A stretch of 64,000 nucleotides of DNA from Escherichia coli (GTDB taxonomy: Bacteria; Pseudomonadota; Gammaproteobacteria; Enterobacterales; Enterobacteriaceae): the NCBI RefSeq assembly GCF_044647545.1, contig NZ_CP172818.1. One strand, 5' to 3'. The translations under genes and the position numbers were made by a program. Positions 2,054-16,367 of this stretch are shown piece after piece. Position 1 is the stretch's first letter; every line of letters starts with the position of its first letter. The notes beneath the pieces were generated by a model. It saw only the letters and a program-made list of their open reading frames with translations, did no database searches and had not been told where the DNA came from.

Positions 2054-3852
2054 TAGTAGACATCTCGCTGATAACGGCGCTCTACGCGCAGCTCACTTAA
2101 AAATTCATCCGCCGCTTCGGTGTCCATGCCACCAAATTCGGCAATCACTTCCAGAAGTGCCTGTTCAACGTCTTTCGCCATGCGATTAGCGTCGCCGCAG
2201 ACATAAATGTGGGCACCGTCATTGATCCAGCGCCACAGCTCTGCGCCCTGTTCGCGCAGTTTGTCTTGTACATAAACTTTTTCTTTTTGGTCGCGCGACC
2301 AGGCAAGATCGATACGCGTCAGCACGCCCTCTTTGACGTAGCGCTGCCATTCCACCTGGTAGAGGAAATCTTCCGTAAAGTGCGGGTTGCCAAAGAACAA
2401 CCAGTTTTTCCCCGGCGCTTCGTCGGCGGCGCGTTGCTGCATAAAGGCGCGGAACGGCGCGATGCCGGTGCCTGGGCCAATCATAATGACCGGCGTTTCC
2501 GGGTTCGCCGGCAGACGGAAGTTGTCGTTGTGCTCGATAAAGACGCGAACTTCGCCCTCCTCTTCGACACGGTCAGCCAGGAAGCTGGATGCACCGCCCG
2601 CGCGAGCACGGCCTTCGATGTCATAACGCACCACACCCACGGTCACGTGGACTTCGCTTTCCACTTCCGCCTGCGAAGAGGCGATAGAGTAAAGACGCGG
2701 CGTCAGTGGACGTAACAGGCCAACCAGCGCTTCTGCATCCAGCTGTGCTGGCGCGAAACGCACCATATCAACAATCGGCGTGGTGGCCGCATAGTGCTGC
2801 AACTTCGCTTTATCGCCCACTAACGGCAGCAAGGATTCGCTGCGCGTCAAGGTGGCGTAATTCTCAACGATGTTGGCCGTGTTGACGGTCAGTTCAAAAT
2901 GCCACTGTAGCGCCTCATTCAGCGGCAGGGTTTTGCCCTCAACGGTGACAGGTTCATCACCTTTCAGCCACAGCAGTTCGACAAGTTCTTTCACCAGTGC
3001 CGGATCGTTCTGATACCAGACGCCCAGCGCGTCACCCGGCTGGTAACGCAGGCCCGAGTCACCTAAGTCAATTTCGATATGGCGAACGTCTTTTTCAGAG
3101 TTACGCCCGGTAATTTTCTGGTTAACAGAGAGGCTCGCCACCAGCGGCGCGTCTTTGCTGTACGGGCTGGTGTGGATTTCATTTACCGCGCCAGTAGCGA
3201 CGGATTGCGAAGGTGCCGCGACAGGCGCACGCGATTTAAGCGCATCAACCACGCGGGCGCGCCACTCGCTGGCAGCGGCCTGATATTCAACGTCGGCATC
3301 GACACGGTCGAGCAGGCGTTCACCGCCCTGTTCCGCCAGCTTGCTGTCAAAATCTTTCCCGGACTGGCAGAAAAATTCATAAGAGCTATCGCCGAGGCTA
3401 AACACGGCAAATGCGGTGTTTTCCAGCTTCGGCGCTTTTTTGGAGAACAGGAACTTATGCAGCGCGACGGCTTCTTCCGGCGGTTCCCCTTCCCCTTGCG
3501 TTGACGTCACCACGATGAGCAGTTTTTCGCTGGCGATTTGTTTGAATTTATAGTCGCCCGCGTTCACCAGCTTAACGTTCAGTTTTGCCGCCAATAAATC
3601 ATCGCGTAATGCTTCAGCAACCCGGCGCGCATTGCCGGTTTGCGAGGCGGAGATAATAGTTATACCCGGCATTTCTGCGGCGGGCGCTGGCGTCGCTGCA
3701 AGCGCAGCAGGCTGCTGGTTGAGCACGCCCCAGAAATAGCCAGAAACCCAGGCAAGCTGGGTAGGAGTTAAATCGGTCGTGGCCGCCTGAAGGCGTGCCA
3801 GTTGCTCCGGGTTCAACGGAAGCAACGCGGAAGGTGGGACCTGTGTCGTCAT
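2053..3852 (-). CDS. cysJ: sulfite reductase flavoprotein alpha subunit
   Basis: 599-aa ORF with flavodoxin-like and FAD/NADPH-binding regions; immediately upstream of cysI on the same strand. Confidence 0.95.
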
Positions 3853-4610: not shown

Positions 4611-5882
4611 ATGGAAGACGACTGCGACATTATTATTATTGGTGCCGGTATTGCAGGCACCGCTTGCGCGTTACGCTGCGCGCGAGCGGGTTTATCCGTT
4701 TTGTTACTGGAACGCGCTGAAATCCCCGGCAGCAAAAATCTTTCCGGCGGGCGTTTATATACCCAGGCGCTCGCGGAACTCCTCCCACAATTTCATCTGA
4801 CCGCGCCTCTTGAACGACGCATCACTCACGAAAGCCTTTCCCTGTTAACGCCGGATGGCGCAACGACGTTTTCCAGCTTACAGCCCGGCGGTGAATCCTG
4901 GAGTGTATTACGTGCACGGTTCGATCCGTGGCTGGTTGCCGAAGCCGAAAAAGAAGGTGTCGAATGCATCCCCGGTGCGACGGTGGATGCGTTGTATGAA
5001 GAAAACGGCAGGGTGTGTGGTGTCATTTGTGGTGACGATATTCTCCGCGCCTGTTATGTGGTGCTGGCAGAAGGTGCCAACAGCGTCCTGGCTGAACGTC
5101 ACGGGTTAGTGACTCGTCCTGCTGGCGAAGCGATGGCGTTGGGGATCAAAGAAGTGCTGTCGCTGGAAACATCCGCTATTGAAGAACGTTTTCATCTGGA
5201 GAATAACGAAGGCGCAGCGTTGCTGTTCAGCGGCGGGATCTGTGATGACTTACCCGGCGGCGCATTTCTTTATACTAATCAACAAACGCTCTCGTTAGGG
5301 ATTGTTTGCCCGCTCTCTTCCCTTACGCAAAGTCGTGTTCCGGCAAGCGAGCTGCTGGCTCGCTTTAAAACGCATCCGGCAGTGCGCCCGCTTATCAAAA
5401 ACACGGAATCACTGGAGTATGGTGCGCATCTGGTGCCAGAAGGTGGCTTGCACAGTATGCCGGTGCAATACGCCGGTAACGGCTGGCTGCTGCTGGGCGA
5501 TGCGTTGCGCAGTTGCGTCAATACCGGAATTTCCGTGCGCGGCATGGATATGGCGCTAACTGGCGCGCAGGCGGCGGCACAAACGCTGATAAGCGCCTGC
5601 CAGCACCGCGAGCCGCAAAATCTGTTTGCGCTTTATCATCACAACGTAGAGCGCAGCCTGCTGTGGGATGTTCTACAACGTTATCAGCATGTTCCGGCGC
5701 TTTTGCAACGCCCTGGCTGGTATCGGGCGTGGCCTGCGTTAATGCAGGATATTTCCCGCGATTTATGGGATCAGGGTGATAAACCTGTTCCACCGCTGCG
5801 CCAGTTATTCTGGCGTCATTTACGTCGTCACGGCCTGTGGCATCTGGCGGGCGATGTTATCAGGAGTCTGCGATGTCTGTAG
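4611..5882 (+). CDS. ygcN: FAD-dependent oxidoreductase, FixC-like electron-transfer flavoprotein-quinone oxidoreductase
   Basis: ORF track 4581-5882 (alternative start); ATG at 4611 gives MEDDCDIIIIGAGIAGTACA with a Rossmann GxGxxG FAD-binding N-terminus. Confidence 0.85.
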   Translation: MEDDCDIIIIGAGIAGTACALRCARAGLSVLLLERAEIPGSKNLSGGRLYTQALAELLPQFHLTAPLERRITHESLSLLTPDGATTFSSLQPGGESWSVLRARFDPWLVAEAEKEGVECIPGATVDALYEENGRVCGVICGDDILRACYVVLAEGANSVLAERHGLVTRPAGEAMALGIKEVLSLETSAIEERFHLENNEGAALLFSGGICDDLPGGAFLYTNQQTLSLGIVCPLSSLTQSRVPASELLARFKTHPAVRPLIKNTESLEYGAHLVPEGGLHSMPVQYAGNGWLLLGDALRSCVNTGISVRGMDMALTGAQAAAQTLISACQHREPQNLFALYHHNVERSLLWDVLQRYQHVPALLQRPGWYRAWPALMQDISRDLWDQGDKPVPPLRQLFWRHLRRHGLWHLAGDVIRSLRCL

Positions 5883-6133
5883 CCCGTAATCTCTGGCGCG
5901 TTGCCGATGCGCCGCACATTGTTCCGGCTGACTCCGTTGAGCGTCAGACGGTACAATGGTTGATTAACGCTTGTCCGGCTGGTCTTTTTTCGCTCACACC
6001 AGAAGGTGACTTACGTATTGACTATCGCAGTTGCCTGGAGTGTGGCACCTGCCGTTTGCTGTGCGACGAAAAAACACTACAACAGTGGCGCTATCCACCT
6101 TCCGGATTCGGCATCACCTACCGTTTTGGATAA
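5873..6133 (+). CDS. ygcO: ferredoxin-like protein (FixX-like)
   Basis: ATG at 5873 gives MSVARNLWRV...CLECGTCRLLCDE with a cysteine cluster; overlaps the ygcN 3' end as in fixCX pairs. Confidence 0.8.
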   Translation: MSVARNLWRVADAPHIVPADSVERQTVQWLINACPAGLFSLTPEGDLRIDYRSCLECGTCRLLCDEKTLQQWRYPPSGFGITYRFG

Positions 6134-6149
6134 ATAATAAGGATAATTT

Positions 6150-6725
6150 ATGCCCCTCTTACACCTGCTCCGCCAGAATCCGGTGATTGCTGCCGTTAAA
6201 GATAATGCCAGCCTGCAACTGGCAATCGACTCTGAATGCCAGTTTATTTCCGTGTTGTACGGCAATATCTGCACCATCAGTCATATCGTCAAAAAGATTA
6301 AAAGTGCCGGGAAATATGCCTTTATTCATGTCGATTTGCTGGAAGGCGCATCGAACAAAGAAGTGGTGATTCAGTTTCTGAAACTGGTGACCGAGGCGGA
6401 CGGCATTATCAGCACGAAAGCATCGATGCTGAAAGCAGCAAGAGCGGAAGGTTTTTTCTGTATTCATCGCCTGTTTATTGTTGATTCGATTTCGTTTCAC
6501 AACATTGATAAGCAAGTTGCGCAATCGAATCCGGATTGTATTGAGATCCTGCCTGGCTGTATGCCCAAAGTGCTGGGCTGGGTGACGGAGAAAATCCGCC
6601 AACCGCTGATTGCTGGCGGGCTGGTGTGCGATGAAGAAGATGCGCGTAATGCGATTAACGCAGGTGTCGTGGCGCTTTCCACCACGAATACCGGGGTCTG
6701 GACGCTAGCGAAAAAATTGCTTTGA
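6150..6725 (+). CDS. ygcP: GlpP-like glycerol-3-phosphate-responsive antiterminator family protein
   Basis: 191-aa ORF; protein recognised as YgcP (GlpP family). Confidence 0.8.
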   Translation: MPLLHLLRQNPVIAAVKDNASLQLAIDSECQFISVLYGNICTISHIVKKIKSAGKYAFIHVDLLEGASNKEVVIQFLKLVTEADGIISTKASMLKAARAEGFFCIHRLFIVDSISFHNIDKQVAQSNPDCIEILPGCMPKVLGWVTEKIRQPLIAGGLVCDEEDARNAINAGVVALSTTNTGVWTLAKKLL

Positions 6726-6764
6726 CGGGATAATCGTAACGAATTGAATTTGTGTGATTTGTAG

Positions 6765-6830
6765 GCTGTACGCCACATCGGACATTCAGCGCCTGATGCG
6801 ACGCTTGACGCGTCTTATCAGGCCTACAAG
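6765..6830. repeat. REP element between ygcP and ygcQ
   Basis: gcctgatgcgacgcttgacgcgtcttatcaggcctac at 6791-6827 is a near-perfect REP consensus. Confidence 0.75.
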
Positions 6831-6871
6831 TCCCCAGGCCAGAACCGTAGGCAGGATCATCCAGCAACACG

Positions 6872-7732
6872 TTATTGGCAATCTGCGTGAATGTTTGTCA
6901 CCATTGCCTCCAGCACCACTTTCCAGTCATCAACCACGCCAACATCTGCCTGTGAAAATACCGCTGCGCTGGCGTCATGATTAATCGCCACCACAAACTT
7001 GCTATTGCATACGCCCGCCATTAACGCTGCTGCGCCAGAAGCGCCAACAACAATACACACCTCAGGTGCCAGCAGATGTCCGGAAATACCAATCACTTTT
7101 TCAGCATCAACGCCACCGTTCATCACTCGCGCCCGACTGTAGCCCACTTCGGCTCCCAGCTTTTCTGCCAGCATAGCGATTTCCTGGTTATCTGCCTCTC
7201 CGCCCTGCCCCACCACCAGCACCCGTCTGGCTTCAGCTAATGGGTCGCGGGTAACATTTTTCAGGTTTTCTAGGCTAACCAGCCAGTCGGGAAGCGCGCC
7301 GGGGACAATGTTCAGTTGCTGCATCCCAGAGGGCAACGTGGCGTTTTTATCTGCTCCCGCCTGACGCGCCAGCGAAAGGCATAGCGGGCGTTTGTCTGTT
7401 TGCAGCGTCGCCGTCAACGCATTTCCCCAGTGGGATTTGCGCACGCTTACGGTTGGAATATCTAACGAAGTCACCTGGCAGATGCTTGCACCATGTAAAC
7501 GCCAGGCCAGCCGGGTCGACAGTTCATCGCCAAACGTTCCCGGCGGAAAGAGAACAACGTCCGCAGGCGTTCGCTGCCACTGTTCCACCAACGCATCCAG
7601 CACCTGTTCCGCCACTACGGGCTGAGGTTCAATCTGCCAGTGCGCCAGGGTACAACCGCTGAAATCCTGCGCCGCCAGCCAGCTCGCTATTGCGGCATTC
7701 TCCTGATTTATTGTCACAATTGCGATATTCAT
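6872..7732 (-). CDS. ygcQ: electron transfer flavoprotein alpha subunit-like (FixB-like)
   Basis: ORF track 6872-7765; likely start at MNIAIVTINQENAAIASWL (286 aa). Confidence 0.8.
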   Translation of the reverse strand: MNIAIVTINQENAAIASWLAAQDFSGCTLAHWQIEPQPVVAEQVLDALVEQWQRTPADVVLFPPGTFGDELSTRLAWRLHGASICQVTSLDIPTVSVRKSHWGNALTATLQTDKRPLCLSLARQAGADKNATLPSGMQQLNIVPGALPDWLVSLENLKNVTRDPLAEARRVLVVGQGGEADNQEIAMLAEKLGAEVGYSRARVMNGGVDAEKVIGISGHLLAPEVCIVVGASGAAALMAGVCNSKFVVAINHDASAAVFSQADVGVVDDWKVVLEAMVTNIHADCQ

Positions 7733-8508
7733 GGCTGCATCCTTTGGCGTAAATAGTTCTGCCATAGCTTTTGCGCTTTTTCTGCTACCGTTTGCCCATC
7801 AATCAGCGTCGCTCCGCGTCGTTGCTCTGCTCTTGCCAGATGCAGACACTGCATCGCTGGCAATTCGACAGCAACAGTTTTACGGATAATTGCTGCTTTC
7901 CCCGCAGCCATTCGCTGGCGCATTCCCGGTACTGGCAAGGCCACTTCACCACACTGGCGCACGGCAATCACCGCAGGCAAGCGAACCCGGCAACAGCGCA
8001 GCCCGTTTTCAGTACGCTGTTCAAGGGTGATAAACGGCGCGTCGAGAGTAAAACGCTCCACCTGGGTGAAGCAGGGCCAGCCCAGCATTTCCGCCAGCAA
8101 AAATGGCGTTTGCCCATTCTGCCCTTCGCTGCTTTGGCAGCCGGTAATGATCAGATCCAGCGGATTCTGACGCTGCCATTCGGCAATATGGCGAGCGACA
8201 AATTCCGGCGCAAAGCGCAGATCTGCCACCGTCTCCAGCAATACAGCGTCCTCAAACCCAAGAGCCATGAGATAGCGCAGCCAGTGCAACGCCCGTTCAT
8301 CCCCCATGCTCAACGCGGTTAAAGACATCGGCGTACCGTTTTTTCTCTGCGCCAACAGCAGCGCGGCGGCAGCCTGTTCATCAGCACCGAGTAAACTTCG
8401 CAGTAGCGAAACATCTGGTCCAATATTACCCTGAGCCGCCGCCTGCCACTCTTTTTCCGCCAGCATTCCGGCATCCGGTTCGGCTTTAAACGCTAACAGA
8501 ATGTTCAT
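7729..8508 (-). CDS. ygcR: electron transfer flavoprotein beta subunit-like (FixA-like)
   Basis: ORF track 7729-8514; begins MNILLAFKAEPDAGM; overlaps the ygcQ start. Confidence 0.8.
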   Translation of the reverse strand: MNILLAFKAEPDAGMLAEKEWQAAAQGNIGPDVSLLRSLLGADEQAAAALLLAQRKNGTPMSLTALSMGDERALHWLRYLMALGFEDAVLLETVADLRFAPEFVARHIAEWQRQNPLDLIITGCQSSEGQNGQTPFLLAEMLGWPCFTQVERFTLDAPFITLEQRTENGLRCCRVRLPAVIAVRQCGEVALPVPGMRQRMAAGKAAIIRKTVAVELPAMQCLHLARAEQRRGATLIDGQTVAEKAQKLWQNYLRQRMQP

Positions 8509-9823
8509 TCGCACCTCCTACATTTCCCGCCGCCACCAGCGGGAGTGCTTTGGTTTCTGGTGCCCATAGCCAGGTCACAACAAAACCAACCAACAACACT
8601 GCCGCCAGGAGCAATAAGGTGGCTTGCATTCCCCACTGCGCCAGCACCCACGGCAGCAGGCCAGTACTTACCGCCGCCCCCAACCGACTCATGGCGGTGG
8701 CAAAACCGACGCCCAGCGAGCGAATGTCAGTAGGAAAACTTTCCGCAGGCAAAATGCCCACCAGATTACTGACTGCCGAAATGGTGGTGCTGAAGAGAAC
8801 AAAAAGCAGCAGCGTTAATGAACTGCCGGAAGGCAAACAGGCCATCACTACCAGCGTTGCCGCCAGCAGCAAAAAACTTCCCAGCAAAAACTTGCGATGT
8901 GCCAGCAGGTGCGTCAGAACTAATCCCAGCAGCGCGCCCACAATTAACAACGCATTAAGCATCAGGCTGGCGGTCAGCGCATCCTCCAGACCAATAGTCT
9001 GGGCGATGGTCGGCAGCCAGGTATAAATCACAAACCATGGGATTACGAGGCAGACAAAGAAGACGCTGTTAAACGCCGTGCGTCGCCAGTAGCGCGAAGA
9101 AAACAAGGTTTTGATGTGTTTATGGGTCGCCGCTGCCACTTCATCGCCCAGTAAAACATGTGGCCCCAAATAGCGATGCACAATAGCGTGAGCTTCAGCA
9201 AAACGTCCCTGGCGCAGTAGCCAGCGTGGCGATTCCGGCGTGCCCCAACGTAGCAGCGTAATCAGCAAGGCTGGTAACGCCGCTGATGCCAGCAGCCAGC
9301 GCCAGGCCTCCGGGTTTTCGGAAATAAAGTGATGTCCGGCAATACTTGCCAACACATAGCCTACGGTCCACACCACGCTGAATGCGCCCAGTAAAATACC
9401 GCGATGGCGGCGCGGGGAAAATTCAGCCAGCAAGGTGTGACCGACTGAGTAATCGCCTCCCAGACCAATGCCGATCAAAATGCGCAGCCCAATAAGATGC
9501 TCTGGCGTGGTGGCAAAAAATTGCAAGAACGAAGCGAGCGTAATCAGCAAAAAGCTGAAGGTGAAGATTTTTTGCCGACCAATATGGTCGGAGATCCATC
9601 CAAGAACCAGGCTGCCAAGAAACAAACCAAGGAGTGCTGAGCCGCCAATCATTCCCGCCATAAACGGCGTCAGTTGCATGGCTGGAGTAAGCTGAATAAT
9701 GGCGTAACCAATGACGCCGAGGACATAACCGTCGGTCAGGTGCGCACCGAAAGTGAGCGCAGCAATGCGGCAGTGAAAACGGTTAAGTGGTAAATCATCC
9801 ATTCGCACCGGTGAAGTGTTCAT
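8486..9823 (-). CDS. ygcS: MFS transporter (sugar-porter-like)
   Basis: ORF track 8486-9913; likely start at MNTSPVRMDDLPLNRF (ATG at 9823; the long form is an alternative); multiple hydrophobic TM segments. Confidence 0.8.
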   Translation of the reverse strand: MNTSPVRMDDLPLNRFHCRIAALTFGAHLTDGYVLGVIGYAIIQLTPAMQLTPFMAGMIGGSALLGLFLGSLVLGWISDHIGRQKIFTFSFLLITLASFLQFFATTPEHLIGLRILIGIGLGGDYSVGHTLLAEFSPRRHRGILLGAFSVVWTVGYVLASIAGHHFISENPEAWRWLLASAALPALLITLLRWGTPESPRWLLRQGRFAEAHAIVHRYLGPHVLLGDEVAAATHKHIKTLFSSRYWRRTAFNSVFFVCLVIPWFVIYTWLPTIAQTIGLEDALTASLMLNALLIVGALLGLVLTHLLAHRKFLLGSFLLLAATLVVMACLPSGSSLTLLLFVLFSTTISAVSNLVGILPAESFPTDIRSLGVGFATAMSRLGAAVSTGLLPWVLAQWGMQATLLLLAAVLLVGFVVTWLWAPETKALPLVAAGNVGGANEHSVSV

Positions 9824-9916
9824 CTTTACCCCTTCATTGTCCGGTAATAAGAACGGCTTCTCGCCTGAGAAGCCGAAAAGGCAACGCCCCGTCATCGCGG
9901 AACGCTGCCTCACACA

Positions 9917-11371
9917 TTATTTTTCAATCGGATAGATAGTACCCGTATTCATAATGCCGTTAGGATCGAACTGTTTTTTCAGCCCTTCCAGCAACGTCCA
10001 CGCGCTGCCGTGTTCCAGTTTGCTCCAGTGAACGCGATGTTTACCAATACCGTGGTGGTGCACCATCGAACCGCCGAGACGAATGGTTTCTTCGCAGATG
10101 ATTTTGTTGAGCGGATTGTGGTACTTGTCGATTTCCTCTTCCGGCTTACAGTCAACGACGTTGTAGTCGTAGACGAAGTACATGTTGGTACCGTTCTGAT
10201 AGCTATGAGAGGAGTGACCGCCCAGCATGGTGATGTCGTCGGCGTGCGGGAACTCGGTACGAATACGGTTAATAACGCTTTCGTAGATTTCGTGGATGCA
10301 GCTCCAGCAGCCGGACACTTCGGTGGTAAAGCCCATGTTGCCGGTTTTGAGGATCTGCACACGTTCAGCGGCCACTTTATCCGGCCCCCAGTTCAGGTGA
10401 TTAAACCAGGTTTCGATCAGCTTGCTGTCCACGCGCTGGCATTGCGGGTAACGTGCCACGATTTCAGCAATCCCTTCGCCCGTCGCCTTCGCAATGCGAG
10501 GGTTACCTTCAGCCATAAAGATCAGCACGCATTTACCATCGGCAAAATGGGTGAAGTGTTGGGTGCCATCTTCAACGTCATATAAACGAGCGATCGACGG
10601 ACGATACCCTTCCACCATGATTTCACGCAGGATGTTGAAGCCGGTTTTCATATCTTCCAGGATATAGCCGTAGAAGAGGTTGTTTTCCGGGGTGAATTTA
10701 AAGATTTTCACTGTTACTTCAGTGATATAGCACAGTGCACCTTCGTTGCCGATGATGATGTGACGAATGTCCGGGCCAGCCGCGCGGCGTGGCACGTTTT
10801 TAATACGTGTGACGGTACCATCTGCCAGTACCGCTTCCAGACCAACGACCATATCTTCGATTGCGCCGTAGAGTGTGGAGAACTGCCCGATACTGCGGGT
10901 TGCTACCAGGCCGCCCATCTGCGCCAGCGGTTTTGATTGCGGTGAATGCCCCGTGGTGTAACCTTTTTCACGCAACGCGTTTTCCAGCACCTCCAGCGGA
11001 ACGCCACATTGCGCCGTGGCCTGCATATTCTCAATATCAATATTAATGATTTGATTCATGGCAGAGCCGTCGAGCACCACCGAGTTTTCCACAACGGTTT
11101 CCAGCCCGCCTTCAGTGGCGGAAGCACCGGTACGCGGCACACCGTTAATTTTGTGCGCATTCATAAAATTCAGCACACGGGACACTTGTTCTGTGGAACC
11201 GAGTTTTACGACCGCTGCCGGAATCGGCAAAGTATAAATGCCATGAATATCCGGAAATTTGCGAAAACGGTCAATACTGTTTTTCTTTAATACTGTTTCA
11301 TCGGTAATTACGCGATCTGCACCAACAATTTCCTTTAGCTGGTCGACAATCGCTGCGCGAGATAAAGACAT
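9917..11371 (-). CDS. ygcU: FAD-linked oxidase (GlcD / alkyl-DHAP-synthase-like)
   Basis: 484-aa ORF; FAD-binding PCMH-type N-terminal region; recognised as YgcU. Confidence 0.85.
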   Translation of the reverse strand: MSLSRAAIVDQLKEIVGADRVITDETVLKKNSIDRFRKFPDIHGIYTLPIPAAVVKLGSTEQVSRVLNFMNAHKINGVPRTGASATEGGLETVVENSVVLDGSAMNQIINIDIENMQATAQCGVPLEVLENALREKGYTTGHSPQSKPLAQMGGLVATRSIGQFSTLYGAIEDMVVGLEAVLADGTVTRIKNVPRRAAGPDIRHIIIGNEGALCYITEVTVKIFKFTPENNLFYGYILEDMKTGFNILREIMVEGYRPSIARLYDVEDGTQHFTHFADGKCVLIFMAEGNPRIAKATGEGIAEIVARYPQCQRVDSKLIETWFNHLNWGPDKVAAERVQILKTGNMGFTTEVSGCWSCIHEIYESVINRIRTEFPHADDITMLGGHSSHSYQNGTNMYFVYDYNVVDCKPEEEIDKYHNPLNKIICEETIRLGGSMVHHHGIGKHRVHWSKLEHGSAWTLLEGLKKQFDPNGIMNTGTIYPIEK

Positions 11372-11440
11372 AGTAATTCCTTCCTGATAATAAAAATGGA
11401 ATAATCATTAATAAGAGAAAACAGAAACCACCGTTATGGA

Positions 11441-12226
11441 TTAGCGCACTAAATAACCGCCATCGACCACTAATAAATGCCCGTTAACATAATTTGAAGC
11501 CGGACTTGCGAGGAAGACGGCTGCGCCCATTAAATCCTGTGTATCGCCCCAACGGTTTGCCGGAATATGATCAAGAACGCGCTGATTAGTTTCAGGATTA
11601 CTGCGTGTCGCCAGCGTAATATCTGTTGCATAATAACCTGGAGCAATACCATTTACCTGAATATTATATTGACCTAGTTCATCACAATAAGCTTTGGTGA
11701 ATCCAGCAAGAGCATGTTTAGTTGCAGAATATGCAGGTGACCATTGTCCACCTAAGTAAGAGAACAATGAACAGATATTAATAATTTTACCGCTTTTCTG
11801 CGGGATCATAATTTTTGCCGCTTCGTAGCTTAACTCGAATGCGGCGGTCAGGTTCACATCAATCATCGGGTCCCAGTCGGCACGACCGAAGTCCAGCACC
11901 TTATTCAGCTTACAAATACCGGCATTGTTAACCAGAATATCTACGGTACCGAAGCGCTCACAGCAGGCAGCGATAATCTTCTGCGGCGCGCCTTCTGCGG
12001 TGATATCCACCTGCATAAAATCAACTTCGACACCCTGTTTTTCAATCATTTCCTTTGTTTCGCCGTTATCTTTGACGAAGCTAGGGATAAAGACATTTGC
12101 GCCAGCTTTGGCCAACGCCATGGCAAATGCCTGGCCTAAACCGCTATTCCCGCCGGTAACAATTGCTGTTTTACCTTTCAGGGAGAAAAAATCCATTGAG
12201 AACGCATTGAGAGATTCGATTGACAT
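11441..12226 (-). CDS. ygcW: short-chain dehydrogenase/reductase (SDR)
   Basis: ORF track 11441-12301; likely start MSIESLNAF...; TGGNSGLG cofactor motif and Y..K catalytic pair. Confidence 0.85.
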   Translation of the reverse strand: MSIESLNAFSMDFFSLKGKTAIVTGGNSGLGQAFAMALAKAGANVFIPSFVKDNGETKEMIEKQGVEVDFMQVDITAEGAPQKIIAACCERFGTVDILVNNAGICKLNKVLDFGRADWDPMIDVNLTAAFELSYEAAKIMIPQKSGKIINICSLFSYLGGQWSPAYSATKHALAGFTKAYCDELGQYNIQVNGIAPGYYATDITLATRSNPETNQRVLDHIPANRWGDTQDLMGAAVFLASPASNYVNGHLLVVDGGYLVR

Positions 12227-12544
12227 AGTTAGCTCCAATTTCCGTAAGGCAAAAAAAAAGAAAGGTAACTTCCCCCGCGAGAGGGAAGTTACCTTTCTCA
12301 TTATCTCTGGTAACTGGAGATAATTTTTAGCATAAGGGCATAAGCGCTAATGTGATCGTAATCACAGTGTGATATTCGTATTATCAAATAATTTTAAAAA
12401 GCAGAAGCGTGACTACTCTCACACAACACCACTGCTTTCCATGTTATTTCTTATTGCAATTACTAGAGACCTGAGAAAAGTAATCCACCTGAAAGGGCGG
12501 CTTACTTTTCTCTTTTTTTTGTCTATTACAAATGGGAATACGAT

Positions 12545-13822
12545 ATGCAACACAACTCATATCGCCGTTGGATAACCCTCGCGATAATTAGTTTTAGCGG
12601 CGGCGTTAGTTTCGACCTGGCTTATTTACGTTATATTTATCAAATTCCCATGGCGAAATTTATGGGATTCAGCAATACCGAGATAGGTTTAATAATGAGT
12701 ACCTTTGGTATTGCAGCTATTATTCTTTATGCGCCCAGTGGCGTTATTGCCGATAAATTCTCACATCGCAAAATGATTACTTCCGCGATGATCATTACCG
12801 GATTACTGGGTCTGTTAATGGCAACTTATCCACCGCTGTGGGTAATGCTCTGTATTCAGGTCGCCTTTGCGATAACGACGATTTTAATGCTGTGGTCGGT
12901 GTCGATTAAAGCCGCATCGTTGCTGGGCGATCATAGCGAGCAAGGGAAAATTATGGGCTGGATGGAAGGGCTGCGCGGCGTCGGTGTAATGTCGCTGGCG
13001 GTGTTTACCATGTGGGTCTTTTCTCGCTTTGCACCGGATGACAGCGCCAGCCTGAAAACGGTCATTATCATCTATAGTGTGGTTTACATCTTGTTGGGGA
13101 TTCTGTGCTGGTTTTTTGTTAGCGATAACAACAACCTGCGCAGTGCCAATAACGAAGAAAAACAATCATTCCAGCTTAGCGACATCCTGGCTGTTTTGCG
13201 CATCAGCACCACCTGGTATTGCAGCATGGTGATTTTTGGCGTCTTCACCATCTACGCCATTCTGAGTTACTCCACCAACTATCTCACCGAAATGTACGGC
13301 ATGTCGCTGGTGGCGGCGAGCTACATGGGGATTGTGATCAACAAAATATTCCGCGCGCTGTGTGGTCCACTTGGCGGCATTATCACCACCTACAGTAAAG
13401 TGAAATCCCCTACCCGCGTAATTCAAATCCTTTCCATCATCGGCCTGCTGGCACTGACTGCCCTGCTTGTTACCAACTCTAACCCGCAATCGGTCGCTAT
13501 GGGGATTGGCCTGATTTTACTACTGGGATTCACCTGCTACGCCTCACGTGGACTGTACTGGGCCTGCCCCGGCGAAGCGAGAACACCGTCTTACATTATG
13601 GGCACCACGGTAGGTATTTGTTCGGTGATTGGATTCCTGCCGGATGTCTTCGTTTACCCGATTATCGGCCACTGGCAAGACACCCTGCCCGCTGCAGAAG
13701 CCTACCGCAACATGTGGCTAATGGGCATGGCCGCGCTTGCCATGGTGATCATCTTTACCTTTTTGCTGTTCCAAAAAATTCGTACTGCTGATAGCGCCCC
13801 CGCAATGGCTAGCAGCAAGTAA
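12545..13822 (+). CDS. yqcE: MFS transporter
   Basis: 425-aa ORF, very hydrophobic with about 12 predicted TM segments. Confidence 0.85.
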   Translation: MQHNSYRRWITLAIISFSGGVSFDLAYLRYIYQIPMAKFMGFSNTEIGLIMSTFGIAAIILYAPSGVIADKFSHRKMITSAMIITGLLGLLMATYPPLWVMLCIQVAFAITTILMLWSVSIKAASLLGDHSEQGKIMGWMEGLRGVGVMSLAVFTMWVFSRFAPDDSASLKTVIIIYSVVYILLGILCWFFVSDNNNLRSANNEEKQSFQLSDILAVLRISTTWYCSMVIFGVFTIYAILSYSTNYLTEMYGMSLVAASYMGIVINKIFRALCGPLGGIITTYSKVKSPTRVIQILSIIGLLALTALLVTNSNPQSVAMGIGLILLLGFTCYASRGLYWACPGEARTPSYIMGTTVGICSVIGFLPDVFVYPIIGHWQDTLPAAEAYRNMWLMGMAALAMVIIFTFLLFQKIRTADSAPAMASSK

Positions 13823-13848
13823 GCCAGGAAAATTACAGGAGAAAAATC

Positions 13849-15327
13849 ATGTCGAAAAAATACATCATAGGGATTGATGGCGGAAGTCAGAGCACAAAAG
13901 TGGTGATGTACGATCTGGAAGGTAATGTGGTTTGCGAAGGCAAAGGCTTATTGCAGCCGATGCACACGCCAGATGCCGATACCGCAGAACATCCTGACGA
14001 CGATTTATGGGCATCATTATGTTTTGCCGGTCACGATTTGATGAGTCAGTTTGCCGGAAATAAAGAAGATATTGTCGGTATTGGTCTGGGATCCATCCGT
14101 TGCTGCCGTGCGTTATTGAAAGCCGATGGCACGCCAGCTGCGCCGTTGATTAGCTGGCAGGATGCACGCGTTACACGCCCTTACGAACATACGAATCCTG
14201 ACGTGGCATATGTCACCTCTTTTTCAGGTTATCTGACGCATCGCTTAACCGGCGAGTTTAAAGACAATATCGCCAACTATTTTGGTCAGTGGCCGGTGGA
14301 TTATAAGACCTGGGCATGGAGTGAAGATGCCGCAGTCATGGAGAAGTTTAATATCCCCCGTCATATGCTGTTTGATGTGCAAATGCCGGGCACTGTTCTT
14401 GGGCATATCACTCCTCAAGCCGCGCTGGCGACACATTTCCCAGCTGGGCTGCCGGTTGTTTGTACCACCAGTGATAAACCGGTAGAAGCTCTGGGAGCCG
14501 GATTACTGGATGATGAAACGGCGGTGATTTCTCTTGGCACCTACATCGCGCTGATGATGAACGGTAAAGCACTGCCGAAAGATCCGGTGGCGTACTGGCC
14601 GATTATGTCTTCTATTCCGCAAACATTGCTGTATGAAGGTTACGGTATTCGCAAAGGCATGTGGACGGTGAGCTGGCTGCGCGACATGTTAGGCGAGTCG
14701 TTAATTCAGGATGCCAAAGCACAGGATCTTTCACCGGAAGATTTGCTCAACAAAAAAGCGTCTTGTGTGCCGCCTGGCTGTAATGGTCTGATGACGGTGC
14801 TGGACTGGCTGACCAATCCGTGGGAACCATACAAACGCGGGATTATGATCGGCTTTGATTCCAGCATGGATTACGCATGGATATATCGTTCGATACTGGA
14901 AAGCGTGGCGCTGACGCTGAAGAACAATTACGACAATATGTGTAATGAAATGAATCACTTTGCAAAGCATGTGATCATTACTGGCGGCGGTTCGAACAGC
15001 GATCTGTTTATGCAGATTTTTGCCGACGTGTTCAACCTTCCGGCACGCCGTAACGCCATTAATGGTTGTGCAAGTCTGGGGGCAGCGATCAATACGGCGG
15101 TAGGTCTGGGGCTATACCCGGATTACGCAACGGCTGTCGACAAAATGGTTCGCGTGAAAGATATCTTTATGCCTGTTGAGAGCAACGCCAAACGCTACGA
15201 CGCGATGAATAAAGGCATTTTCAAAGACCTAACCAAGCACACTGATGTGATCCTGAAAAAATCGTATGAAGTGATGCATGGTGAGCTGGGGAATGAAGAT
15301 TCGATCCAGAGCTGGTCGAATGCGTAA
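13849..15327 (+). CDS. ygcE: FGGY-family carbohydrate kinase
   Basis: 492-aa ORF; N-terminal IGIDGGSQSTKVV sugar-kinase motif. Confidence 0.85.
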   Translation: MSKKYIIGIDGGSQSTKVVMYDLEGNVVCEGKGLLQPMHTPDADTAEHPDDDLWASLCFAGHDLMSQFAGNKEDIVGIGLGSIRCCRALLKADGTPAAPLISWQDARVTRPYEHTNPDVAYVTSFSGYLTHRLTGEFKDNIANYFGQWPVDYKTWAWSEDAAVMEKFNIPRHMLFDVQMPGTVLGHITPQAALATHFPAGLPVVCTTSDKPVEALGAGLLDDETAVISLGTYIALMMNGKALPKDPVAYWPIMSSIPQTLLYEGYGIRKGMWTVSWLRDMLGESLIQDAKAQDLSPEDLLNKKASCVPPGCNGLMTVLDWLTNPWEPYKRGIMIGFDSSMDYAWIYRSILESVALTLKNNYDNMCNEMNHFAKHVIITGGGSNSDLFMQIFADVFNLPARRNAINGCASLGAAINTAVGLGLYPDYATAVDKMVRVKDIFMPVESNAKRYDAMNKGIFKDLTKHTDVILKKSYEVMHGELGNEDSIQSWSNA

Positions 15328-15373: not shown

Positions 15374-15510
15374 TGGTTATCCCCGCTGACGCGGGGAACA
15401 TAAGTTCGACAACTTAAAAAATGATAACAAGTCCGGTTTATCCCCGCTGATGCAGGGAACATAATAAAAACTTTAACTAGTTCGTTTATCCCTGTTGTTA
15501 CAAGGAATAT
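15374..15510 (-). CRISPR. Decayed CRISPR remnant: three degenerate type I-E repeats
   Basis: tggttatccccgctgacgcggggaacat (15374-15401), cggtttatccccgctgatgcagggaacat (15434-15462) and tcgtttatccctgttgttacaaggaatat (15482-15510) are mutated copies of the downstream repeat. Confidence 0.7.
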
Positions 15511-15964: not shown

Positions 15965-16367
15965 TGGTTCATCCCCGCTGGCGCGGGGAACACGTCTTTT
16001 TGACCGGCCGGTAAATCGTCTGCCTGCGGTTTATCCCCGCTGGCGCGGGGAACACAAACCATTCTCGCAATCAAGGACTATTCCTAGACGGTTTATCCCC
16101 GCTGGCGCGGGGAACACGGTCGCAGGGAATACAAAGCCGTGCATCCTGCTCGGTTTATCCCCGCTGGCGCGGGGAACACTGGCTCTGCAACAGCAGCACT
16201 ATGACCCCGTCGGTTTATCCCCGCTGGCGCGGGGAACACGAAAAGCTTATGATCGTTAATGCCGCAAACACCGGTTTATCCCCGCTGGCGCGGGGAACAC
16301 ATTACACCTATGTGCGAGCGCCCGGTTTTTGCCGCTAGCGGTTTATCCCCGCTGGCGCGGGGAACAC
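15965..16367 (-). CRISPR. Type I-E CRISPR array, 7 repeats and 6 spacers, no adjacent cas genes
   Basis: Repeat cggtttatccccgctggcgcggggaacac (29 bp) at 16027, 16089, 16151, 16211, 16272 and 16339, plus a degenerate terminal copy at about 15965; spacers 31-38 bp; orientation inferred from the AT-rich leader on the high-coordinate side. Confidence 0.95.

Follow-up and report, generated by a model that had tools for sequence, protein, structure and literature searches.

The ygc/yqc cluster, at positions 4611-15327 of the 64,000-nucleotide stretch of Escherichia coli DNA analysed here (the window), belongs to the E. coli y-ome as a known cluster that still lacks an assigned function, and its existence is not new. 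What seems to be new is a mode of control common to its two divergent operons, ygcWUSRQ and yqcE-ygcE: as read from the sequence, both are quite likely governed by the cyclic AMP (cAMP) receptor protein (CRP) together with a GlpP-type transcription antitermination that depends on the product of a third operon, YgcP. The genes likely have the general architecture of a catabolic system, and on balance we favour the whole model, in which an inducible system under two layers of control serves the use of a small glycerol-like compound; the proposal that such a compound is handled by way of a phosphate ester resembling dihydroxyacetone phosphate (DHAP) is tentative. An initial annotation of this DNA had described ten y-genes encoding uptake, phosphorylation and oxidation functions. 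Its coordinates were right, and its gene content and family calls were borne out by the RefSeq annotation and by profile matches; ten genes are indeed present, but it named nine of them, leaving out ygcP (6150-6725), and its account thus went without both this gene and the antitermination control.

YgcP and the two leader RNAs

The regulator and the RNA elements proposed to be its targets are the following:

ygcP, 6150..6725, + strand: GlpP-family (G3P_antiterm) RNA-binding antiterminator, proposed regulator of the two leaders
ygcW leader RNA, 12249..12331, - strand: hairpin P1, 12315-12309 paired with 12293-12287; loop AGAGAUAAUGAGAAA at 12308-12294
ygcW leader terminator, - strand: perfect 19-bp stem, 12299-12281 paired with 12276-12258, followed by U9
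yqcE leader RNA, 12442..12521, + strand: hairpin P1, 12459-12464 paired with 12479-12484; loop AGAGACCUGAGAAA at 12465-12478
yqcE leader terminator, + strand: 11-bp stem, 12473-12483 paired with 12502-12512, with inner pairs, followed by U8

Both leaders are about 80 nt long, and their terminators lie in the sense orientation downstream of the promoters and just ahead of the ribosome-binding sites. The predicted antiterminator hairpin P1 reads AGUUACC[AGAGAUAAUGAGAAA]GGUAACU in the ygcW leader and AUUACU[AGAGACCUGAGAAA]AGUAAU in the yqcE leader, and shares 6-7 nt with the 5' arm of the terminator, such that the two structures are mutually exclusive. Folding z-scores were -6.45 for the ygcW leader and -3.84 for the yqcE leader. 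Within the window there are exactly two copies of the loop motif, AGAGA-N2-3-UGAGAAA, both in sense and both inside the leaders (0.00 occurrences expected). P1 alone has a folding energy of -6.7 kcal/mol in the ygcW leader and -1.4 kcal/mol in the yqcE leader, whereas the leaders containing the terminator reach -34.2 and -21.6 kcal/mol, respectively; with P1 so weak against such strong terminator folds, termination would be the default and a factor would be needed to hold the antiterminator.

YgcP is a fitting candidate for such a factor. Its residues 12-184 cover positions 1-173 of the 173 of PF04309 (E 2.8e-62), it matches the PDB entries 3kts (E 5e-28) and 1vkf, and it is 95-97% identical in Citrobacter, with a ratio of nonsynonymous to synonymous substitution rates (dN/dS) of 0.015. 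Orthologues of YgcP group closely together, with an identity of 55% or more all the way from E. coli to Clostridia, and they are only about 33-36% identical to the GlpP-family proteins of the loci inspected, one of which is encoded beside a glycerol-3-phosphate dehydrogenase gene. In Bacillus subtilis, GlpP with glycerol-3-phosphate overrides terminators in the glpD, glpFK and glpTQ leaders (PMC9604022, PMC10573289).

In the mechanism that we propose from the sequence, the covariation and the phyletic pattern, each leader would by default fold into the terminator ahead of the ribosome-binding site, and YgcP, expressed separately, as part of the ygcNOP operon, would together with an effector stabilise the weak 6-7-bp hairpin that closes AGAGA-N2-3-UGAGAAA. 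As the 3' strand of P1 is the 5' strand of the terminator, binding of YgcP would allow transcription to continue into ygcWUSRQ and yqcE-ygcE. GlpP responds to glycerol-3-phosphate; by analogy, the most likely effector of YgcP is the phosphate ester that the kinase YgcE produces.

A covariance model built for the element, R1, scored 84.6 bits on the ygcW leader and 81.1 bits on the yqcE leader. No Rfam family matched the leaders, the matches being restricted to weak ones to naRNA4, in the ygcP-ygcQ spacer, and to a chance snoRNA; the RefSeq annotation carries no leader element. Upstream of ygcN there was neither significant structure (z = 0.23) nor an R1 match, which argues that ygcNOP does not share this RNA control. 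Many E. coli genomes have a yqcE leader 100% identical to that of the window, although in coding DNA most E. coli genomes are only about 96% identical to the window strain. An E. coli-wide BLAST search with the yqcE leader for other genomic copies found only the leader itself, being too insensitive to detect even the paralogous ygcW leader.

Comparative evidence for the proposed RNA switch

A scan of species-representative genomes with YgcU yielded 63 loci, from which 103 distinct leaders were extracted and 66 aligned (alignment A1, MAFFT). The terminator was paired in 91.9% of cases, a case being one sequence at one pair; eight pairs showed changes in both partners, 0 of 500 shuffles attained this level, and slid controls gave 54-65%. 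P1 was paired in 84% despite about 10 misaligned rows, again with 0 of 500 shuffles reaching the value and with slid controls at 17-54%, and two of its pairs had switched, between G-C and A-U and between U-A and C-G. When the P1 arms were anchored on sequence only, 93% of the pair positions paired in 96 distinct leaders, with compensatory changes at three positions, and the switches from A-U to G-C occurred separately in an enterobacterial metagenome-assembled genome (MAG) and in a Firmicute. The 14-15-nt loop stayed conserved while the stems covaried, and one column covaried with its antiterminator partner and its terminator partner alike, as is expected for alternative pairing.

In the enterobacterial loci R1 found exactly two sense copies per locus, ahead of ygcW and yqcE, and no match ahead of ygcN, ygcS or ygcP. 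In other groups, too, the copies stood ahead of genes of the cluster. Within the seed, the Photobacterium leaders scored 60.6 and 39.9 bits; outside it, matches were obtained in a Syntrophomonadaceae MAG (L058, 50.7 bits) and in a Firmicutes MAG (L066, 54.6 and 44.2 bits), the second copy of the latter preceding a BCCT transporter gene. Sporomusa gave 42.3 and 41.0 bits, the second match once more preceding a BCCT gene, and Enterococcus canis 39.2 and 33.4 bits. R1 had no match in the six loci without ygcP within reach (L003, L005, L055, L057, L065 and L068), and in Serratia microhaemolytica the leader elements are present and ygcP lies on another contig. In Limnobaculum eriocheiris (L039, about 3077-3175) the divergent leaders have seemingly collapsed into one shared palindromic terminator with an A-run on both sides in place of the antiterminator 5' arm, and the RNA switch may have been lost there.

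At one canonical locus, with glpP beside a GlpA-type glycerol-3-phosphate dehydrogenase gene, the leader read by eye contains CUGCUA[GAGAGAUGAGAGUA]UAGCGG overlapping a terminator, with a like design and loop consensus; this comparison rests on the one locus, two others being uninformative (L070 lacks glp genes and L071 is a 746-bp contig).

We considered whether the hairpins could be plain terminators or insulators, or a protein-independent riboswitch, and not targets of YgcP. Binding of YgcP to the leaders is inferred, ygcP lies in a third operon 5.5 kb away, and P1 of the yqcE leader, at -1.4 kcal/mol, is no better than shuffled sequence, all of which would suit this explanation. However, the hairpins are placed in sense between promoter and ribosome-binding site, the loop is conserved over covarying stems, the element follows ygcP from phylum to phylum and is missing from loci without it, and the architecture, compared by eye, is like that of the canonical GlpP leader; for a riboswitch, moreover, the loop falls short of the size of known metabolite aptamers and Rfam holds no match. 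We therefore judge an origin unrelated to YgcP quite unlikely.

Predicted promoters and CRP sites

The 318-bp spacer from which ygcWUSRQ and yqcE-ygcE diverge contains, besides the leaders, these promoter elements:

CRP site, 12351..12366: perfect palindrome TGTGATCGTAATCACA, 0 mismatches, about 41.5 bp upstream of the predicted ygcW transcription start (about 12317)
Extended -10 of ygcW, 12332-12324, - strand: TGCTAAAAA
CRP site, 12408..12423: CGTGACTACTCTCACA, 1 mismatch, about 41.5 bp upstream of the predicted yqcE transcription start (about 12457)
Extended -10 of yqcE, 12442-12450, + strand: TGTTATTTC

CRP sites probably stand at -41.5 of both divergent promoters, the placement expected for class II activation, a geometry read from the extended -10 elements, with both transcription starts inferred. 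PhyloScan ranked this spacer among the top CRP predictions (PMC1794230), and yqcE-ygcE has been listed as Crp-activated (PMC8085971). From the sequence and this literature we propose that cAMP-CRP would activate both back-to-back promoters, so that the cluster would fire only in the absence of preferred sugars, and that antitermination would act as the second layer. The initial annotation had made its reading depend on the genes being regulated together; the CRP-site and leader-RNA design shared by both divergent operons agrees with this.

YgcU resembles alkyl-DHAP synthase

ygcU, 9917..11371, - strand: 484 aa, with the Pfam domains FAD_binding_4 (PF01565) and FAD-oxidase_C (PF02913)

YgcU had been called an FAD-linked oxidase, and the two domains sustain this; it is, however, not a generic member of the family, since it carries the catalytic signature of alkyl-dihydroxyacetone-phosphate synthase (ADPS), a likeness that seems not to have been described before. 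The best PDB match of YgcU is ADPS (4bby, E 6e-40), followed by glycolate oxidase (E 1e-25) and the lactate dehydrogenase LctD (7qh2_C, E 1e-21). Published ADPS structures assign catalytic roles to Arg419, Tyr578 and the His615-617 loop. In a residue alignment these are kept in YgcU as R262, the Tyr of GTNMYF, and GGSMVHHHGIGK; YgcU has HHHG where GlcD-type enzymes have GEHG or EHG, and the EHG motif is absent. By comparison, a second, GlcD-like oxidase encoded in the Photobacterium cluster has GEHGLG at the corresponding position. With its 484 aa against the 658 of ADPS, YgcU aligns from ADPS residue 215 onwards, and the first 150-200 residues or so are absent; because of the missing N-terminal extension and the catabolic genomic context we file it as ADPS-like, and not as ADPS. 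YgcU homologues with an identity of 70% or more are encoded in Sporomusa, Alkalihalobacillus, Photobacterium and Desulfobacula.

The initial annotation had proposed uptake, phosphorylation and oxidation of an unknown sugar or polyol-like substrate. The ADPS signature points to a DHAP-like phosphorylated ketone as the substrate of YgcU, and not to a free sugar, and from the sequence we propose that YgcU is a dehydrogenase linked to electron-transfer flavoprotein (ETF), or a cleaving enzyme.

The strongest competitor to this proposal is that YgcU, as a D-2-hydroxy-acid dehydrogenase, forms a complex with the ETF YgcQR, similar in type to LctBCD or glycolate oxidase, which would turn a sugar or hydroxy acid into a 2-keto acid with the kinase and the dehydrogenase YgcW acting upstream. 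YgcU does belong to the GlcD/LctD superfamily (TIGR00387, E 6.5e-42; 7qh2_C, E 1e-21), the adjacency of the dehydrogenase, etfB and etfA genes is like that of lctBCD, YgcW resembles KduD and gluconate 5-dehydrogenase, and YqcE resembles galactonate-type anion transporters. Nevertheless, YgcU is far closer to ADPS than to any 2-hydroxy-acid dehydrogenase, has the HHH loop, Tyr and Arg of ADPS and lacks the EHG that the second Photobacterium oxidase has; YgcQ is without an LctC-type N-terminal ferredoxin domain, and the GlpP-type regulator and the FGGY kinase indicate a phosphate ester. We consider a hydroxy-acid route unlikely.

A conserved core and an exchangeable electron-transfer branch

The remaining genes of the cluster encode the electron-transfer module, the transporters, a short-chain dehydrogenase/reductase (SDR) and a kinase:

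ygcN, 4611..5882, + strand: FixC/YdiS-like FAD protein, ETF:quinone oxidoreductase component (NF007450, E 5e-113; FixC NF007542, E 1e-108; both below cut-off)
ygcO, 5873..6133, + strand: FixX-like ferredoxin (NF011993 FixX, E 1e-22)
ygcQ, 6872..7732, - strand: divergent ETF alpha-like protein, 286 aa (weak ETF-alpha matches, E 1e-20)
ygcR, 7729..8508, - strand: divergent ETF beta-like protein (weak ETF-beta matches, E 5e-11)
ygcS, 8486..9895, - strand: major facilitator superfamily (MFS) transporter (TIGR00895, TIGR00879 and TIGR00898 matches; sugar-porter, aromatic-acid and organic-cation families)
ygcW, 11441..12226, - strand: KduD-like SDR (NF005390, 349.9 bits against a cut-off of 369; PDB KduD 4z9y, E 2.5e-58)
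yqcE, 12545..13822, + strand: MFS transporter, anion:cation symporter (galactonate transporter)-like (TIGR00893, E 5e-18)
ygcE, 13849..15327, + strand: FGGY-family kinase without orthology to characterised kinases

All four component types of a FixABCX-like electron-transfer module were matched, as the initial annotation had it, and the catabolic look that it gave the cluster is supported as well. As the headline of the locus, however, the ETF/FixCX module serves poorly: it is present in E. coli but is the least conserved part, is dispensable, and is absent from some orthologous clusters. The core of the system is YgcW, YgcU, YgcE, YgcP and the transporters, and the ETF/FixCX proteins are an exchangeable accessory; this distinction, too, seems to be new.

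The whole cluster stands between queD and queE in Citrobacter, Klebsiella spallanzanii, Raoultella, Enterobacter spp., Pluralibacter, Cedecea, Buttiauxella, Yokenella and Mixta, and elsewhere in the genome in Budviciaceae, Rahnella and some Serratia. Identity between Citrobacter and E. coli is 97% for YgcW, 95-97% for YgcP, 93% for YgcU, about 90% for YgcE and YqcE and about 88% for YgcS, against about 75% for YgcN, 72% for YgcR, about 70% for YgcO and 60% for YgcQ. The corresponding dN/dS values are 0.013-0.050 for the core (ygcW, 0.013) and 0.087-0.146 for the ETF/FixCX genes (ygcQ, 0.15); the module evolves 5-10 times faster than the core. Intraspecies hypervariability of the ETF genes was considered and rejected, the real signal being the higher dN/dS and not special recombination.

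The genes ygcQ, ygcR, ygcN and ygcO are all absent from the clusters of Erwinia typographi, Pantoea, Izhakiella and Serratia proteamaculans/quinivorans. In most of the clusters without ETF, ygcS has as neighbours an aldehyde dehydrogenase of the succinate-semialdehyde family (TIGR01780, 661 bits where the cut-off is 646), an aldo-keto reductase, a protein like the formaldehyde-activating enzyme (Fae; TIGR03126, 140 against 118 bits) and a LysR regulator. Fae homologues above the TIGR03126 cut-off are encoded at 2583-3101 of locus L043 and 6890-7390 of L055, with equivalents in L037 and L054; they belong to ygc-type clusters in Enterobacterales and in a SAR324 MAG, and next to each lie an aldo-keto reductase and a dehydrogenase of the succinate-semialdehyde type. 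Enterobacterales are not known for tetrahydromethanopterin-dependent methylotrophy.

In distant phyla a recurring set comprises a GlpP-like protein, an SDR, YgcU, EtfB, EtfA, an FGGY kinase and sometimes a second GlcD-like oxidase, and the order ygcU-etfB-etfA is kept in E. coli, Sporomusa, Photobacterium, Desulfobacterales and Syntrophomonadaceae. Genes connected with quaternary amines are often found beside the distant clusters (BCCT transporters in 6 loci, OpuAC/ProV-type ABC systems and MTTB methyltransferases), an aspartase-family lyase and a succinate-semialdehyde-type dehydrogenase adjoin the core in marine and anaerobic bacteria, and the SDR gives way in Enterococcus canis to a glycerol dehydrogenase of the GldA type (444 bits, cut-off 336). 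Two further loci, L007 (a MAG labelled Planctomycetota) and L029 (Chryseobacterium sp. 18061), carry ygc genes 99% and 89% identical to those of E. coli with enterobacterial flanks, and are most likely contaminated or mis-binned assemblies.

All the curated FixA/B/C/X and YdiQ/R/S/T cut-offs were missed by far (FixC, 360 against 610; FixX, 80 against 166). Among PDB entries, YgcR comes nearest to two non-bifurcating ETFs, 1efp and 1efv (E about 1e-10), and its segment GCQSSEGQNGQTPFLL aligns best with ETFs of this type; the comparison with bifurcating ETFs (second FAD site, beta subunit) was by published motifs. An N-terminal ferredoxin domain is not present in the YgcQ sequence. In some E. 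coli records, such as H15 (NZ_CM176494.1), ygcR is named 'adenine nucleotide alpha hydrolase family protein', a naming that we attribute to its strong divergence from the ETF models.

As for the other proteins, overexpression of YgcS has been reported to improve nicotinamide-dependent production of nicotinamide mononucleotide (PMC8601175). The longest open reading frame (ORF) of ygcW, 11441-12301, encodes 286 aa from a start at 12301; the RefSeq start at 12226, which is preceded by GGAG, fits the RNA element, since translation from 12301 would cross the leader terminator. The best models for YgcE fall far below their cut-offs (XylB, 142.6 against 380 bits; LsrK, 140.5 against 528), that of GlpK being weak too; its nearest PDB relatives are the autoinducer-2 kinase LsrK (E 1e-29) and then glycerol kinases, with the N-terminal substrate domain not aligned.

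That the cluster might be a cryptic or decaying remnant without a present function in E. coli is very improbable. Literature searched by gene name gave no phenotype or inducing condition, the ETF genes evolve fast and depart from the canonical motifs, and the cluster is missing from about 6% of E. coli genomes; but the ten ORFs are intact, dN/dS in comparisons among Escherichia, Citrobacter and Klebsiella is 0.01-0.24 for every gene, placing all ten under purifying selection, the regulatory RNA is identical in thousands of genomes, and the position of the cluster is kept in many Enterobacteriaceae genera.

A proposed pathway and its weak points

The glycerol-like or DHAP-like reading is drawn from the GlpP-type regulator, the gene order ygcU-etfB-etfA, the ADPS-like active site of YgcU and the GldA swap in Enterococcus canis. 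We propose that a small glycerol-like polyol or hydroxy-ketone would be taken up by YgcS and/or YqcE, that YgcW would make or use a ketone with NAD(P), and that YgcE would phosphorylate a terminal hydroxyl; the resulting ketone phosphate would be DHAP-like and possibly substituted at position 3. YgcU, which lacks the lipid-binding N-terminus of ADPS, would then act at the carbon next to the carbonyl, by oxidation or by oxidative removal of a substituent, and two electrons would pass from YgcU to the ETF YgcQR, on to the FixCX-like YgcNO and to quinone.

The evidence for this reading is computed or drawn from the literature, and several points weigh against it. A pure ADPS-type exchange would need no electron acceptor, and a dedicated ETF fits it poorly; several aerobes are without the ETF genes, and the canonical FAD-binding motifs have diverged in both YgcQ and YgcR. 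The cluster had been said to look like a complete pathway, but completeness is not supported, there being no aldolase, isomerase or other exit enzyme in it; the product would therefore have to belong to central metabolism already, or other loci would have to encode the enzymes that process it. On the side of the RNA, the covariation largely divides the two paralogous leader classes and so represents fewer independent events than the counts of changed pairs suggest, and at the canonical glp locus the best R1 match, though exactly in the leader, was weak (17.6 bits, E 0.06). The effector of YgcP could also be glycerol-3-phosphate itself.

This last point leads to the alternative of a second glycerol/glycerol-3-phosphate pathway, with YgcE as a glycerol or dihydroxyacetone kinase, YgcU-ETF as a glycerol-3-phosphate dehydrogenase and YgcP as a sensor of glycerol-3-phosphate. 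YgcP is a full-length G3P_antiterm protein, glycerol kinases are among the nearest solved relatives of YgcE, the cluster of Enterococcus canis includes a GldA-type glycerol dehydrogenase, the canonical GlpP leader has, by eye, a like loop consensus, and ADPS is generally known to bind a DHAP moiety. Yet E. coli has glpK, glpD and glpABC, and it is general knowledge that the glycerol phenotypes of the mutants are not rescued by the cluster; glycerol-3-phosphate, a lipid precursor, is constantly present and would make a poor specific inducer; the N-terminal substrate domain of YgcE does not align with glycerol kinase; and the two extra transporters, with the BCCT and Opu transporters of other phyla, suggest a more elaborate substrate. 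We give a plain glycerol pathway little credence, and prefer the DHAP-like phosphate ester of a different glycerol-like compound.

In a bolder version, which we regard as doubtful, the ygc core would be an undescribed cross-phylum pathway for the degradation of 3-substituted glycerols, including a new leader RNA family. The C2 hydroxyl would be oxidised and C1 phosphorylated, after which YgcU would run ADPS chemistry catabolically, releasing the substituent and leaving a product at the triose-phosphate level, with electrons going to the ETF; E. coli would apply like chemistry to a gut-derived analogue. From the neighbour genes only, we speculate that the non-enteric clusters degrade deacylated betaine lipids or glycerol-linked quaternary amines. 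Literature searches on bacterial ADPS-like/ETF pathways and on betaine-lipid head-group catabolism returned nothing relevant, for or against.

Ten adjacent, strongly conserved genes without an assigned function in the best-studied bacterium are of interest in themselves, and the leader RNA offers a practical handle on them, as a reporter built on it should respond only to the true inducer and make the substrate question a screen. Should YgcP work as proposed, we know of no GlpP-type antitermination system reported from E. coli before it, and it would define the RNA target of the GlpP family, for which we found no Rfam model. A catabolic ADPS-like enzyme with an ETF would be a new type of reaction for the fold, and the links to betaine/choline-type transporters in marine and anaerobic bacteria suggest relevance to how abundant osmolytes or lipid head groups are turned over.

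The locus, its prevalence and its surroundings

The ten intact ORFs annotated by RefSeq run from the ygcN ATG at 4611 to the ygcE stop at 15327 and form three transcription units, ygcNOP (+), ygcWUSRQ (-) and yqcE-ygcE (+). The short gene overlaps (ygcN/O, 10 nt; ygcR/Q, 4 nt; ygcS/R, 23 nt) suggest translational coupling. Full-text literature searches on the gene names found no assignment of a substrate or pathway, all RefSeq product names are generic, and all ten proteins stay below the curated NCBIfam equivalog cut-offs, which means that no specific function is assigned to any of them; this concurs with the initial annotation, for which no substrate had been established. The 'ygcO' of PMC13104625 is a misprint for ycgO and was discarded as a functional mention.

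Of 5,426 complete E. coli genomes, 5,060 contain 80% or more of the region, and about 5,100, or about 94%, have the cluster; some 325 of the 5,426 have no cluster or fragments only, and NZ_LR883000.1 keeps just 231 bases of the ygcQR region. The sequence at 4611-15327 is 100% identical to that of E. coli FDAARGOS_497 and several other strains. Cluster DNA of the window strain is about 96-97% identical to that of most E. coli genomes and at least 99% identical in 63-83 genomes only, whereas the encoded core proteins and those of related Escherichia lineages share about 99% identity; the locus seems to come from a divergent lineage or to be a recombined segment. 'E. coli E69', whose divergence had suggested hypervariable ETF genes, is taken to be a separate Escherichia lineage and not a variant allele, given a dS of 0.3-0.5 to the window across all genes compared.

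The cluster is flanked by cysJIH-queD on one side and by CRISPR repeats and queE on the other. Beside the genes, the following features were noted:

Repetitive extragenic palindromic (REP)/BIME-like palindrome, GCCTGATGCGACGC...GCGTCTTATCAGGCCTAC, in the convergent ygcP-ygcQ spacer 6726-6871, core about 6751-6824
CRISPR type I-E, two degenerate repeats, 15375-15460, the first 48 nt past the ygcE stop
CRISPR type I-E array, seven repeats, 15967-16365

The match of the ygcP-ygcQ spacer to the REP-derived naRNA4 is below threshold (31.9 bits against a gathering score of 59.5). The CRISPR array measures about 1,250 bp in the otherwise identical FDAARGOS_497 record, and the window strain differs there. 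The adjacency of CRISPR repeats to the cluster had been pointed out and is real, but it shows no functional link; outside Enterobacteriaceae the cluster occupies other genomic contexts.

Comparison with known systems

The closest regulatory parallel is the GlpP system of B. subtilis, with which the ygc system shares a full-length regulator of family PF04309, promoter-proximal leader terminators, a layer of catabolite control on top, and, among the regulated genes, those for an FGGY kinase and for a flavoprotein dehydrogenase of respiration; to the eye, an AGAGA..UGAGA loop and the overlapping-hairpin design recur in the canonical GlpP-linked leader and the ygc leaders. The ygc system differs in that its host is Gram-negative, its catabolite layer is CRP and not CcpA, its enzymes are an unassigned kinase, an SDR and an ADPS-like flavoenzyme instead of GlpK and GlpD, and its effector is probably a different phosphate ester.

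The electron-transfer module resembles the E. coli FixABCX (linked to caiTABCDE) and YdiQRST systems in its ETF alpha/beta pair, FixC-like flavoprotein, FixX-like ferredoxin and presumed route from dehydrogenase to quinone. Unlike these, it is split over two convergent operons, ygcNO(P) and ygcRQ, its ETF subunits are very divergent (E 1e-11 to 1e-20) and below all cut-offs, its partner YgcU has a PCMH/VAO fold and not that of an acyl-CoA dehydrogenase, and it is dispensable in related genera. In LctBCD of Acetobacterium woodii, too, the gene of a GlcD-superfamily flavoenzyme adjoins etfB-etfA; however, YgcU has HHH against the EHG of the LctD type, YgcQ is without the ferredoxin domain, and the electron sink in E. 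coli would be a FixCX-type quinone reductase instead of NAD+ and ferredoxin.

With ADPS/AGPS (EC 2.5.1.26) YgcU shares the two-domain FAD fold and the catalytic residues, but its context is catabolic and soluble (kinase, SDR, transporters and ETF) and not that of ether-lipid synthesis, and whereas ADPS performs a redox-neutral exchange, YgcU is paired with an electron acceptor. Finally, GlpK-GlpD for glycerol and EryA-EryB of Brucella for erythritol follow a logic like that of the ygc system, an FGGY kinase followed by a respiratory flavoprotein, with the phosphate ester as the inducer; the ygc version departs from them in a flavoprotein of the PCMH/VAO rather than the DAO/GlpD fold, in the use of an ETF carrier and in an extra SDR step.

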